UHGV virus genome: UHGV-0103744 | Length of the DNA: 14,629 nucleotides | DNA from: a virus | Strand: one strand, 5' to 3' | Shown: one piece after another, positions 4,530 through 7,775 of the stretch | Numbering within the stretch: the first letter of the stretch is position 1 | Layout of the letters: each line of letters begins with the position of its first letter | Notes under the pieces: generated by a model | What the model was told of the DNA's origin: nothing | What the model saw: the letters and a program-made list of their open reading frames with translations, nothing else | Databases searched by the model: none | Made by a program: the position numbers and the translations under genes

Positions 4530-4820
4530 TTAGTGATTCAGGCCGTTACCGCGTCCGTCGAGAAAAACTTCCACGAGCAAATCACGGGTATAAGTGCGCT
4601 CGATGCCGCGATGCAGATATAGCCGTCCGCGTAAATTAGCTGATGCAGTCCAGGTACCATCTTTGTGTTTGACCAGCATTCCTGGCATGACCGCACCTCG
4701 ATTAACGGTCTGCGTTCCATAATGTTGATGAACCATAAAAACTCCTGCCCGTAAGCTGGGCTGCTGAACATATAGAGACTTCTGCGCGTATTCAGGCGGT
4801 GGATGGCCGCCGGTTGTCAT
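4530..4820 (-). CDS. Hypothetical PL-proximal protein (96 aa from the first ATG; the 136-aa ORF in the track begins at a TTG)
   Basis: GC-rich ORF occupying the first-gene position of the leftward operon (where N/cIII/kil sit in lambda) but with no recognisable similarity to N, cIII or Kil. The annotated 4940 start is a TTG; the first ATG (4818-4820) has GAGG about 10 nt upstream. The true start is uncertain. Confidence 0.4.
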
Positions 4821-4999
4821 AACTAAGTCGCCTCGTTGAAGCGACTGAGGTATGAAGTGTTGAGTTGATTTCAGCTGGTCACACCGACGTTCACGCGTCC
4901 GCTTCACCCCTCGCACTCCCCGGAGCCTGCTGAAATTCAAGCTGCGGATCTAAGCGGTCATCGCAACGGTGAATCAGGTGATTGCCGTATCGTTGTGTT

Positions 5000-5090
5000 G
5001 TTGCGATGAATTCATTTAAAACTATAGTTGTTTTATCGTCAACAACAAAAGTTGTTTTATTGGTTGTTTTAGATATAACTGGTTGTATTT
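5000..5090 (-). promoter_or_regulatory. OL/PL-like leftward promoter with repeated repressor operator half-sites
   Basis: On the - strand: TTGTTGACG (-35; + coords 5037-5042), 17-bp spacer, TAAATG (-10; 5013-5018). The spacer (aaaacaactatagtttt, 5018-5034) is 16/17 identical to the PR spacer. Further AACAAC/GTTGTT-containing repeats at 5041-5058, 5061-5070 and 5077-5090. Confidence 0.6.
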
Positions 5091-5180
5091 AGGATGGATT
5101 TATTTTGTGACTTGCATCGCATAGCGATAACCGAAGCGGGGTTGTGGTGGTTTTTTGAACGGTGTGTGATGAGGGGAGGC

Positions 5181-5208
5181 AAAAGAAAACCCGGCACGAC
5201 GGCCGGGG
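5181..5208 (-). terminator. Intrinsic terminator ending the repressor-proximal (cI + 287-aa gene) transcription unit
   Basis: On the - strand, GC-rich hairpin CCCGGC-cgtcgt-GCCGGG (5190-5207) followed by UUUUCUUUU (+ strand 5181-5189); begins 4 bp downstream of the 287-aa ORF stop. Confidence 0.7.
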
Positions 5209-5211
5209 AAA

Positions 5212-6075
5212 TCATTTCGCATCTACAATAAATAACCTGTTTATCTGGCCTTTTTTAACAGTAGCCTTTGCGGTTATAGTGAATACTGCAGATGGATCAC
5301 CTTTGGTTGATATATATGCACTAAGAGCTCTAATATACGGGTTATTCTTCTTTCCTGCAGCTGGATCGCTAATTTCAGCAGTGATTCTCTTTTTTGAGTC
5401 ATCACCATCTAAAATTATTTTAGCTGTCATATTTTGTGCATCAAATTCTGTAAGAAAAGCACGATACTCACGAAGACCGAGAACTTCATCATCATCAAGC
5501 CTATCAATTTCAGCTTTATCTCTCTCGTTAACTTTTAGAAGGCAGCCGTCAACATTTGTTGCAACACTTATCTGATCGCAAGTATTACCAATAGGTGATA
5601 CTGCCTGCCTTACAGAGGGGCGAAGCTCTACAGCCATTCGGTCAATCAAAGAGATCAACTTATCAATGGTTCCAGCATCCTTGTTTCCTAGTGCCTCTAT
5701 GGCCTTTTCAAGTGACTGCTGCAAAGCTTTCATTTCATCTTTCTTGTTAGAATTTCTCGCAAAAATATATTGTAGTATTGCGCCAAGTATAGTTGCGGCG
5801 ATCCCCGAGAACAACTGGTTCTGAGTGGCGAAGTTAAGAACTGCTTCAAGAGTAAAGCAGTTAGCTTTTGCTTCGCGTGCGTAAACCTTAACTTCCTGAT
5901 AATTAATGTATTTACTATATTTTTGTGTAACAGAGAAAGAAGCTGCTGTTGAGAGAACTTTAGAAAAACCCTTTAGGGATTCTCCTAGGCAGTTCAAATC
6001 TATTTCATGATTTAAAGCATCTTTTCCGTCATACCTAAAAGAGATTTTTATATCCTGTAAAGCGTCACAATCCAT
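5212..6075 (-). CDS. Orphan 287-aa protein in the rexAB-equivalent slot (downstream of and co-oriented with cI); one predicted hydrophobic helix; function unknown
   Basis: Long uninterrupted ORF; visibly AT-rich relative to flanking phage genes; lies between the cI stop (6142) and a strong terminator (5181-5208); hydrophobic segment [19 protein letters not shown] followed by a charged, helical-looking region. No family recognised. Confidence 0.7.
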
Positions 6076-6141
6076 AAATCGCTCTCGTCTAATTCTAATT
6101 AAATTTACTATCCCCTAAACGACTCATCAGCACAGTACTGA

Positions 6142-6831
6142 TTATCCATGTTTCCTGTACGTCTGGGGCATGCTCCCAATAACCTTACCGAAGATGAACA
6201 CCCGGTTCATCTCGTCTTTCTCGATCGGGTCCCACGGTGAGTAGCTCTTGTTATCAGAGATAACCAGCAGCTTATCCTTCATCATTTGCAGGCGCTTTAC
6301 ATGGGCGGTGTCGTCGTACAGAAACGCATAGATGCCATCACCGTCGAAAGATTTAACCGTGATATCAACGAACAGCAGATCACCTGGTTCGATCGTTCCT
6401 GACATGCTGTCACCACGCACGTTAATGATGCGGATATTTTCTGCCTTCCTACCATCGAACATGTGACGAGCATCGTCAAACGAGTACTCAACCGAGCGTA
6501 GAACTTCTACAAACTCACGGTTGATGACTCCCGGCCCGGCACTCACTTCTATATCAAGAACGTCAATCTTAAAGTATTTGGAATGGCTGACAGTTGATTG
6601 TATTGGTTGCACTGTACTGTCTGACATATTTCCAACGCCAGAAGATAACCATTCTGCGCGCACACCCAAAGCGTTCGCGATCTCCACGATTTTAGTTGTT
6701 TGGTTAGCTTTCCCTGTTTCGATTTTCTGAATAGCAGCTTGGCTAACCCCGACCAAATCCCCAAGCGCCTTTTGTGTAAGGCCTCGCGCTAATCTGGCTT
6801 CTTTAAGTCTTTCTGAGAGTGTTGTTTTCAT
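6142..6831 (-). CDS. cI: CI-type prophage repressor: N-terminal HTH (XRE family), C-terminal LexA/S24 autopeptidase domain
   Basis: HTH region LTQKALGDLVGVSQAAIQKIETG; S24 signature GDSMSGT (catalytic Ser) and downstream Lys (VKRL). Divergent from the cro-like gene across an operator-rich 104-bp region. Start taken at MKTTL (6829-6831), because the longer 251-aa ORF would begin inside the PR operator. Confidence 0.85.
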   Translation of the reverse strand: MKTTLSERLKEARLARGLTQKALGDLVGVSQAAIQKIETGKANQTTKIVEIANALGVRAEWLSSGVGNMSDSTVQPIQSTVSHSKYFKIDVLDIEVSAGPGVINREFVEVLRSVEYSFDDARHMFDGRKAENIRIINVRGDSMSGTIEPGDLLFVDITVKSFDGDGIYAFLYDDTAHVKRLQMMKDKLLVISDNKSYSPWDPIEKDEMNRVFIFGKVIGSMPQTYRKHG

Positions 6832-6935
6832 AGTCCAAATGTACAACCAAGGTTTTATTTCATCAAACGAAAATGGTTGTTGACTAAAAACAACCATAGT
6901 TTTAATCTTGATTCAAATTAACCACGGAGGTTGTT
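6832..6935 (+). promoter_or_regulatory. OR region: PR promoter, operator repeats and presumably PRM on the opposite strand
   Basis: TTGACT (-35; 6880-6885), 17-bp spacer, TAATCT (-10; 6903-6908), then GGAGG RBS before the cro-like ATG at 6936. Operator-like repeats: acaaccaaggtttt (6843-6856), inverted repeat atggttgtt / aacaaccat (6873-6881 / 6889-6897), and aaaacaaccatagtttt (6887-6903). Confidence 0.7.
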
Positions 6936-7166
6936 ATGAACCCAGCTATCAAAACAGCGATCAATATCGTTGGTTCACAAAAGAAACTGGGCGCTGCCTG
7001 CGAAGTTTCACAGCAGGCCGTCTATAAGTGGCTTCACAACAAAGCAAAGGTATCCCCTGAACATGTCGGCAGCATTGTTACGGCTACTGGTGGAGTAGTG
7101 AAGGCATACCAGATTCGCCCGGATCTTCCGAAGTTGTTTCCACACACCGAAAAGAACGCAGCTTAA
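6936..7166 (+). CDS. Cro-like HTH regulator of the YdaS type (76 aa)
   Basis: Small HTH protein (GSQKKLGAACEVSQQAVYKWLHN) transcribed divergently from cI off PR; resembles Rac YdaS-type Cro analogues from memory. Confidence 0.75.
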   Translation: MNPAIKTAINIVGSQKKLGAACEVSQQAVYKWLHNKAKVSPEHVGSIVTATGGVVKAYQIRPDLPKLFPHTEKNAA

Positions 7167-7235
7167 ATTTCCATTTCACGCTCTTTAACAATAAGCAATC
7201 AACTTAACAGTCAATTCAAACTAAAGGAGTCAATT

Positions 7236-7775
7236 ATGCAACAACTTATATACCAACAGACTAGCGGATTTAGCCCGACTGCGGTGATAAATCGTTCTCA
7301 AACAAAACAGGTGCCAGGCCACGAAAAAATCCGTGATGCCGTCCGCGCCTGGTCGGCTGAAGATAATCAGGATGTCGTTGCCACACTCATTGTGAATGAG
7401 TATCGGGAGCAGGGCGGCGGCACCATCGATTTCCCTGATGATGTCAGCCGTGCACGCCAGAAGCTGTTCCGCTTCCTTGATAACAAATTCGATTCTGAAA
7501 AATACCGAAATAACGTGCGTGAACTGACCCCGGCAATTCTGGCGGTACTACCGCTGGAATATCGCGGCCACCTGGTTGAGCAGGATATCTTCATGGCTCG
7601 GCTGGCTGAAATGGAAAAGGAACTCAGTGAGGCAAAGCAGGCGGTCATTCTCAACGCCCCACGCCACCAGAAACTGAAGGAGATGAGTGAAGGCATTGTG
7701 TCGATGTTTCGAGTGGACCCGGATCTGGCTGGTCCATTGATGGCGATGGTCACCACCATGCTGGGGGCAATATGA
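7236..7775 (+). CDS. YdaT-like protein in the cII position (179 aa)
   Basis: Strong RBS AAGGAG; motifs IRDAVRAW, QKLFRFLDNKFD and LTPAILAVLPLEYR parallel those I recall in Rac YdaT (PF06254-type); the gene order cro-like then ydaT-like is conserved with Rac. Confidence 0.6.
   Translation: MQQLIYQQTSGFSPTAVINRSQTKQVPGHEKIRDAVRAWSAEDNQDVVATLIVNEYREQGGGTIDFPDDVSRARQKLFRFLDNKFDSEKYRNNVRELTPAILAVLPLEYRGHLVEQDIFMARLAEMEKELSEAKQAVILNAPRHQKLKEMSEGIVSMFRVDPDLAGPLMAMVTTMLGAI

Follow-up and report, generated by a model that had tools for sequence, protein, structure and literature searches.

Genes and early promoters around cI

The window analyzed in this study, a 14,629-nt stretch of the virus genome UHGV-0103744, corresponds to the early region of a lambdoid prophage of E. 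coli. Its layout is lambdoid: cro diverges from the repressor gene cI, and a second cluster of putative operators (OL1 and OL2, within 5018-5055) lies beyond cI, upstream of kil-gam-bet-exo, which run leftward from PL/OL (Table 1). The original prediction held that divergent early promoters with embedded repressor operators are located here, that each control region contains several such sites, and that these sites set the immunity type of the prophage; these proposals are in line with the gene order, the CI and Cro domains, the conservation between genera and a natural exchange of immunity. The locus is very probably an immunity switch of lambda-like build with 434-type operators, whose unit would be a 14-bp site, A[C/A]AAC-N4-GTT[G/T]T.

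CI contains the Pfam domains HTH_3 (residues 9-62) and Peptidase_S24 (residues 95-218), as expected of a lambdoid repressor, along with a candidate cleavage site at Ala98-Gly99, Ser142 in a GDSM motif, and Lys179. Residues 5-68 align without gaps to residues 2-65 of the 434 repressor fragment R1-69 (phmmer E 4.5e-9), and the DNA-binding domains are thus homologous over their full length. The protein is annotated in RefSeq as a 229-aa 'S24 family peptidase', which makes the originally stated length of 230 aa essentially right. Some GenBank records (PhiR5_1 and PhiR34_1) give a 251-aa CI beginning at an ATG inside OR1 (window 6895-6897, - strand). This ATG is not conserved and is missing, for example, from a Klebsiella grimontii locus; RefSeq and the cross-genus alignment support 6831 as the probable start. 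Cro matches Pfam YdaS_toxin, has Xfaso1 Cro (3bd1) as its best solved match, and gave no hit to 434 Cro, and the protein encoded at the cII position matches YdaT_toxin and PDB 8bt1. The recognition helix of Cro, VSQQAVYKW, resembles that of CI, VSQAAIQKI.

To define what is conserved at the locus, we compared it with related loci. A scan with the CI N-terminal domain, using one genome per species, identified 67 loci. The footprint table consists of the window and 14 loci with the identical helix SQAAIQKIE, 13 of which came from the scan and one from a Klebsiella phage. The genera represented are Klebsiella, Kosakonia, Enterobacter, Brenneria, Izhakiella, Providencia, Symbiopectobacterium, Erwinia, Serratia and Morganella; loci of Pantoea and Xenorhabdus were compared for OR only, and with Xenorhabdus the comparison covers 11 other genera.

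Table 1. Features of the cI region, in window coordinates. Operators are putative; the last two rows give the blocks replaced in the heteroimmune phage PhiR30_1.
Feature	Position	Strand	Sequence	Remarks
exo, bet, gam, kil	left of PL/OL (5013-5086)	-		
Predicted PL -10	5014-5019	-	TTAAAT	17-bp spacer; TT[A/T]AAT in 12/15 loci
OL1	5018-5031	-	ACAACTATAGTTTT	
Predicted PL -35	5037-5042	-	TTGACG	TTGAC in nearly all of 15 loci; from consensus and conservation
OL2	5042-5055		ACAACTTTTGTTGT	Perfect 5+5 inverted half-sites
Candidate OL3	5073-5086	-	ACAACCAGTTATAT	Single consensus half-site; low confidence
Intrinsic terminator hairpin	5190-5207	-	CCCGGC-cgtcgt-GCCGGG, then TTTTCTTTTG	
Cargo gene	5212-6075	-		287 aa; DUF7946 and DUF7947; cotranscribed with cI
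cI repressor	6142-6831	-		229 aa; HTH_3 and Peptidase_S24
Control region	between cI and cro			104 bp; holds OR1, OR2 and OR3
Predicted PRM -10	6838-6843	-	TACATT	TAnnTT in 15/15 loci
OR3	6843-6856		ACAACCAAGGTTTT	
Predicted PRM -35	6861-6866	-	TTGATG	TTG conserved (TTGnnn); directly adjoins OR2
OR2	6867-6880		ACGAAAATGGTTGT	ACAACCATTTTCGT on the - strand; one half consensus, the other weak
Predicted PR -35	6880-6885	+	TTGACT	
OR1	6890-6903		ACAACCATAGTTTT	
Predicted PR -10	6903-6908	+	TAATCT	TAnnnT kept in other genera; inner bases vary
Candidate O4	6921-6934		ACCACGGAGGTTGT (ACCAC-GGAG-GTTGT)	Over the cro Shine-Dalgarno sequence; tentative
cro	6936-7166	+		76 aa; YdaS/P22-Cro-like helix-turn-helix
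YdaT/CII-like gene	7236-7775			Followed by O and P
Replaced block 1	5008-5101	-		OL/PL immunity cassette; swapped as a unit with flanks nearly unchanged (local alignment)
Replaced block 2	6699-7234			cI residues 1-44, OR and cro

The - strand at 5013-5046 (PL, GTTGTTGACGATAAAACAACTATAGTTTTAAATG) and the + strand at 6876-6908 (PR, GTTGTTGACTAAAAACAACCATAGTTTTAATCT) share the near-identical core from which the original prediction started. Their best local alignment has 31 columns with 29 identities, single mismatches at two places, and a 1-bp gap, which falls at GAT-AAAAC in PL and TA-AAAAC in PR. The two 17-mers within the core, AAAACAACTATAGTTTT and AAAACAACCATAGTTTT, differ at a single base, as had been claimed, and a search of the window allowing up to three mismatches returned three occurrences, all at PL or PR, against 0.10 expected. 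However, equating the 17-mer with the promoter spacer places it off register at both promoters. At PR, where the -35 and -10 hexamers are separated by 17 bp, the 17-mer begins 1 base into the spacer and finishes on the T of the -10; at PL, the hexamers TTGACG and TTAAAT are likewise 17 bp apart, and the -10 first proposed, TAAATG (5013-5018), would require an 18-bp spacer. The choice between the two PL -10 candidates is ambiguous. Across the comparison loci TTGAC is kept at both PR and PL, and the PR -10 appears as TAATCT, TATTCT, TAATAT, TATATT, TATACT and other variants.

The predicted PRM consists of TTGATG and TACATT separated by 17 bp, with TACATT, TAAATT, TAGATT and others occurring as its -10 across loci. 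The distance from this -10 to the cI ATG was 6 nt in the 11 loci read (7 nt in one); the predicted transcription start is therefore the A of the cI ATG at 6831, and the cI mRNA made from PRM is predicted to be leaderless, with no upstream Shine-Dalgarno sequence.

Conserved 14-bp sites at OR and OL

The conserved unit at both promoters is 14 bp long and corresponds to the 3' 14 bp of the 17-mer. When the 14-bp core ACAACNNNNGTTKT was searched for with at most one mismatch, 11 strand-hits were found against 2.25 expected, a number reached in none of 200 shuffles, and all 11 fall within the two control regions. The single PL/PR difference in the 17-mer is at operator position 6, a base that varies between C and T from genus to genus. 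Reading the sites as 14-mers resolves the shared core into the right half of O2, the -35 TTGAC, O1 and the start of the -10; PL and PR would be alike because both need the same protein- and polymerase-binding elements in the same register. The final base of OL2 is the first T of the PL -35, and the final T of OR1 is the first base of the PR -10. An operator occluding both hexamers, as originally envisaged, is not borne out: O1 reaches only the spacer and 1-2 bases of the -10, and the -35 is contacted by the neighbouring site, OL2 or OR2.

OR comprises two perfect sites and one weak, position-conserved site, and OL two clear sites and one half-site candidate for OL3. Start-to-start spacing is 24 bp for OL2-OL1 and OR3-OR2 and 23 bp for OR2-OR1. 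In the complete 44.6-kb genome of the homoimmune phage PhiR34_1, the only perfect sites are OL1, OL2, OR3 and OR1 (4 versus 0.14 expected), and no far operators were found elsewhere in that genome; the four perfect sites are confined to the two control regions in the window as well. CI may bind these sites cooperatively and with graded affinity.

The arrangement is preserved across genera. Measured from the cI ATG, OR3, OR2 and OR1 are centred at -18.5, -42.5 and -65.5 (+/-1). The members of the OL2-OL1 pair are 24 bp apart in the 14 comparison loci (23 bp in one locus) and follow downstream of unrelated cargo 0.6-3 kb long. Every locus of the footprint table has the same half-sites at OR1, OR3 and OL1, and most share those of OL2 too, whereas sequence variation is seen in the flanks, in the spacers and in the central 4 bp, which are constant in length in every locus. 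OR2 is the weaker site in every locus and always has one weak half. A set of 80 IMG/VR loci with identical CI varies too little to yield a footprint; their common variants lie outside the 14-mers, which is weakly consistent with the same boundaries.

In Pectobacterium prophages with the same CI helix, OR3 and OL1 are kept, and the OR1/OR2 positions and the cro side are swapped for unrelated sequence (TTTAAACAAGATTAATA...). A Cro of the YdaS/P22-Cro family was not found at these loci. They may use a different partner regulator.

The original prediction also regarded the AACAAC/GTTGTT repeats flanking each promoter as additional binding sites. Several sites per region are indeed present, but some of these repeats are not operators. 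The run GCAACAACACAACGA (4990-5004), downstream of PL, lies in a flank shared nearly unchanged with the heteroimmune phage PhiR30_1 and is therefore not immunity-specific, and AAAACAACA at 6820-6831 is merely the MKTT codons of cI. We also rejected ACAACCAATAAAAC (5054-5067), which overlaps OL2 by 2 bp and has direct rather than inverted half-sites, and a 14-mer inside cI (6686-6699, ACGATTTTAGTTGT). The latter has a position weight matrix (PWM) score of 7.8, which is not above chance, encodes a conserved TTKIV motif, and lies nearly entirely within the part of cI common to PhiR30_1.

The start of candidate OL3 is 31 bp upstream of that of OL2, and an ACAACC half-site at or near this distance recurs in several other genera. 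In many genera, the segment upstream of OL2 (window 5054-5110, - strand) reads AAAACAACCAAAT(A)AAAC; its half-sites are direct, not inverted, and the ACAAC is separated from OL2 by about 31 bp. An A-rich block, (A)AAAATAAAT, is located farther upstream. These elements may represent a degenerate OL3 or an UP-like element, or they may be a site for another protein.

A candidate fourth site, O4, is the only unusual, non-textbook feature of the region. Located at about +7 to +20 of PR and 31 bp (three helical turns) from OR1, it would have the cro Shine-Dalgarno sequence as its unspecified centre. O4 scores 9/10 in the window, whereas Providencia, a Klebsiella sp., Morganella and Xenorhabdus reach 10/10. 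Of the 15 tabulated loci, 11 score 9-10/10, as do Xenorhabdus and Photorhabdus. The variants of O4 are forms that bona fide operators also allow (GTTGT or GTTTT), and the ATACG immunity group has its own half-site type, ATAC[T/G], at the equivalent place beside the cro ribosome-binding site. That CI or Cro binds O4 is a possibility that we regard as somewhat doubtful. If it were true, the classical three-operator switch would gain a post-initiation block or a site for autoregulation by Cro, and O4 and the ACAACC half-site upstream of OL2 would together hint that each arm has an auxiliary site in phase with the operators.

Specificity, immunity exchange and competing interpretations

The recognition helices of CI and Cro and the half-sites change together. 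The window group combines the CI helix SQAAIQK and the Cro helix SQQAVYK with the half-site A[C/A]AAC. The corresponding elements are SQPAIQK, SQPAVHK and ATAAC in HK639 and Stx1a phages, and AQPTIWR, AQPTVWR and ATA[C/G][G/C] in PhiR30_1, BTP1 and the Kluyvera, Citrobacter and Enterobacter loci. Within each immunity group the Cro helix mirrors the CI helix despite the different Pfam families of the two proteins (YdaS/P22_Cro and HTH_3), as would be expected if CI and Cro read the same half-sites.

A natural swap delimits the immunity module. On either side of the two replaced blocks listed in Table 1, the alignment of PhiR30_1 with the window is at about 90%, and the replacement cassettes of PhiR30_1 contain its own 14-bp sites. 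The mosaic breakpoints lie at 6698/6699, inside cI at about codon 45, and at 7234/7235. On this side, immunity specificity is limited to OR, cro, the spacer between cro and cII, and residues 1-44 of cI (helices 1-3). The rest of cI, beginning with the TTKIVEIANALGV motif, is about 91% identical at the DNA level to that of the heteroimmune phages PhiR30_1, 4A7 and Perceval.

These results bear on how the shared PL/PR core is to be interpreted. The whole 17-bp element, AAAACAAC[C/T]ATAGTTTT, might itself be the primary operator: one symmetric site, AAAAC-N7-GTTTT, at which bound repressor would occlude both the -35 and the -10. Its near-identity at the two promoters, its perfectly inverted outer 5 bp, and the presence of AAAACAAC ahead of OL2 and in many OL1 sites of other genera would suit this idea. 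We nevertheless consider it improbable, given that OR3 (TGTACAAC...) and OR2 lack the AAA extension and that the 17-mer stops short of the -35 hexamer at both promoters. In other genera, moreover, the 14-bp core is invariant and the three bases 5' of it are just A/T-rich (aat, gaa, taa, tta), which argues against a 17-bp operator, and the closest solved homologue, the 434 repressor, binds 14-bp sites (PMC1636474). Considerably less likely still is a unit made of facing half-sites, i.e., an everted palindrome, which at PR would read ATGGTTGTT-GACTAAA-AACAACCAT (6873-6897), be centred on the -35/spacer, and serve one protein or form a cruciform or an RNA hairpin. A terminator-like scan did find this inverted repeat with a 9-bp stem on both strands, but the facing half-sites are 9 bp apart at PR and 10 bp apart at PL because of the 1-bp insertion or deletion, whereas the N4 within each 14-mer is constant at every locus. 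In addition, OR3 and OL1 have no such partner, and the repeat is upstream of the predicted starts and hence outside the PR and PRM RNAs.

The likeness of PL and PR could also reflect nothing but a recent promoter duplication or gene conversion, the ACAAC repeats having no role in repression. An identity of 29/31 does exceed strict functional need. Elsewhere, however, the centres and spacers of PL and PR have diverged while half-sites and hexamers are kept, the half-sites change along with the CI and Cro helices in the sister groups, and a heteroimmune phage replaces exactly these blocks; of the interpretations considered here, we give this one the least credence.

Several observations weigh against the interpretation that we favour, i.e., a lambdoid switch built on 14-bp operators. 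A consensus promoter scanner called neither PR nor PL nor PRM, so that the promoters are assigned from their position and their conservation between genera. The PR -10 matches TATAAT at three of six positions, and the PL -10 candidates TTAAAT and TAAATG lack the A at -11 and the T at -7, respectively. By PWM score, neither OR2 (6.4) nor O4 (7.2) beats chance, the median shuffle maximum being 9.2; OR2, weak by score, is supported by its invariant position in other loci, and O4 at 9/10 in the window is not above genome-wide chance. The information content of the half-sites is partly circular because the PWM was trained on sites picked for perfect half-sites. The roles of the recognition-helix residues of CI are presumably those seen in the 434 crystal structures, from which we extrapolated them. 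Finally, a literature search on the operator strings, RefSeq protein accessions, DUF7946 and PhiR phage names returned nothing relevant; within the library covered, it turned up no description of the operators or of the repressor specificity and no paper giving these sites or protein accessions.

The proposed switch and its relatives

Taken together, the sites and their positions suggest the following switch. A CI dimer would bind the 14-bp operators, its recognition helix (S-Q-A-A-I-Q-K) reading the outer 5+5 bp and leaving the central 4 bp unspecified. CI at OR1 would cover the spacer and the -10 of PR, CI bound to the weaker OR2 would touch the PR -35, and occupancy of both would turn off cro and the replication genes. 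Because OR2 abuts the PRM -35, bound CI probably activates PRM. OR3, which lies over the PRM spacer and -10, would provide for CI autorepression and serve as the entry point for Cro. OL2 and OL1 lie on either side of the PL -35 and extend over the spacer and the -10; CI bound there would keep kil-gam-bet-exo off. Cro, with a different fold and a similar recognition helix, is expected to use the same sites, and RecA-stimulated cleavage of CI at Ala98-Gly99 would lead to prophage induction.

The region is neither imm434 nor imm-lambda: it is lambda in architecture and 434 in operator type. Phage 434 has three 14-bp operators each in OR and OL, in which 5+5 bp are contacted and the central, non-contacted 4 bp have an indirect effect (PMC1636474). 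According to our site tables and the PWM, the window likewise has 14-bp operators with conserved outer 5+5 bp and a free central 4 bp, and it has three sites at OR. CI also retains the Gln with which the recognition helix begins, along with the equivalents of Gln17 and Arg10. The half-site consensus of 434 begins with ACAA, as does the half-site of the window. The helix is Q-A-A-I-Q-K here and Q-Q-S-I-E-Q in 434, and the half-sites (ACAAC/AAAAC) tolerate A at position 2 and have C at position 5, where 434 has G/T; these differences in helix and half-site point to a different immunity specificity. Unlike in 434, moreover, the spacing of the sites is lambda-like (23-24 bp), and Cro belongs to the YdaS/P22-Cro family and is no paralogue of the repressor DNA-binding domain.

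The familiar lambda arrangement is reproduced in the order of cI, cargo, terminator and OL/PL, in the tripartite OR with its 23/24-bp centre spacing and a weak middle site abutting the PRM -35, in a TAGATT-type PRM -10 with a predicted leaderless cI mRNA beginning at the ATG, and in the S24 autocleavage domain. The distances of OR2 and OR3 from the A of the start codon reproduce the PRM geometry of lambda. In contrast to lambda, the operators are 14 bp rather than 17 bp long, the DNA-binding domain is of a different family, a YdaT-like protein occupies the cII position, OL3 is just a candidate, and no N-like open reading frame or annotation was found between PL and kil. The absence of N is non-essential to the switch itself, and HK022 and HK639 are likewise without N.

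The sister groups (HK639 and Stx1a-converting phages; PhiR30_1, BTP1, ST104 and 4A7) have CI N-terminal domains that are 48-58% identical, the same layout, 14-bp sites about 24-25 bp apart and the same Cro family; they differ in the recognition helices and half-sites given above. Cro and the protein at the cII position match YdaS_toxin and YdaT_toxin, as do YdaS and YdaT of the cryptic prophages Rac and CP-933P, and in work on CP-933P these proteins have reportedly been treated as equivalents of Cro and CII. However, the repressors RacR and PaaR2 of these prophages are unrelated to the S24-bearing CI, and the operators differ.

An untranslated leader of about 270 nt (window about 4737-5006, - strand) precedes kil and is shared nearly unchanged with PhiR30_1. 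At this position HK639 has an annotated putL-like antiterminator RNA; no such RNA is recognisable in the window, where the likeness of the leader to the HK639 RNA was confined to the first ~25 transcribed nt (CATCG-AAC...CGATA). The fold of 4820-5005 was non-significant (z = -1.6), and an Rfam scan of the entire window at gathering thresholds gave 0 hits.

The terminator hairpin closes the cI-cargo transcript just ahead of OL, and the cargo gene, which sits in a variable rexAB-like slot, is outside the switch. The cI-OL interval is a cargo hotspot: among the 80 IMG/VR loci with 100% identical CI, its length ranges from 276 bp, when empty, to about 1.9 kb in at least 10 classes, and three of the 80 share the length class of the window. 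The 287-aa protein of the window belongs to PHROG 5147 and weakly matches PADLOC PDC-S42 (E 5e-4); other phages with the same CI hold HipA/HipD, GevT/GevA or nothing in this slot, and BTP1 has the defence gene bstA in the equivalent one.

Of 5,426 complete E. coli genomes, 1,524 (~28%) have a segment comprising the cI N-terminus and cro with at least 95% identity, and the phages PhiR5_1, PhiR34_1, PhiR26_1, PhiR47_2, Turner and IdasGreatGrand have the same immunity segment; temperate coliphages isolated recently are among the carriers of the module. The switch is an apparently undescribed and very widespread member of a well-known kind, and the finding leaves the understanding of how such switches operate unchanged. 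Set side by side, the CI helices, Cro helices and half-sites of the family provide a small natural data set on the rules of helix-turn-helix recognition, anchored on the 434 structures. Defining the operators makes homo- and heteroimmunity predictable for a group of prophages that is very common in E. coli, and allows induction-proof or clear-plaque mutants to be designed and differential RNA sequencing or chromatin immunoprecipitation data to be read at these loci.

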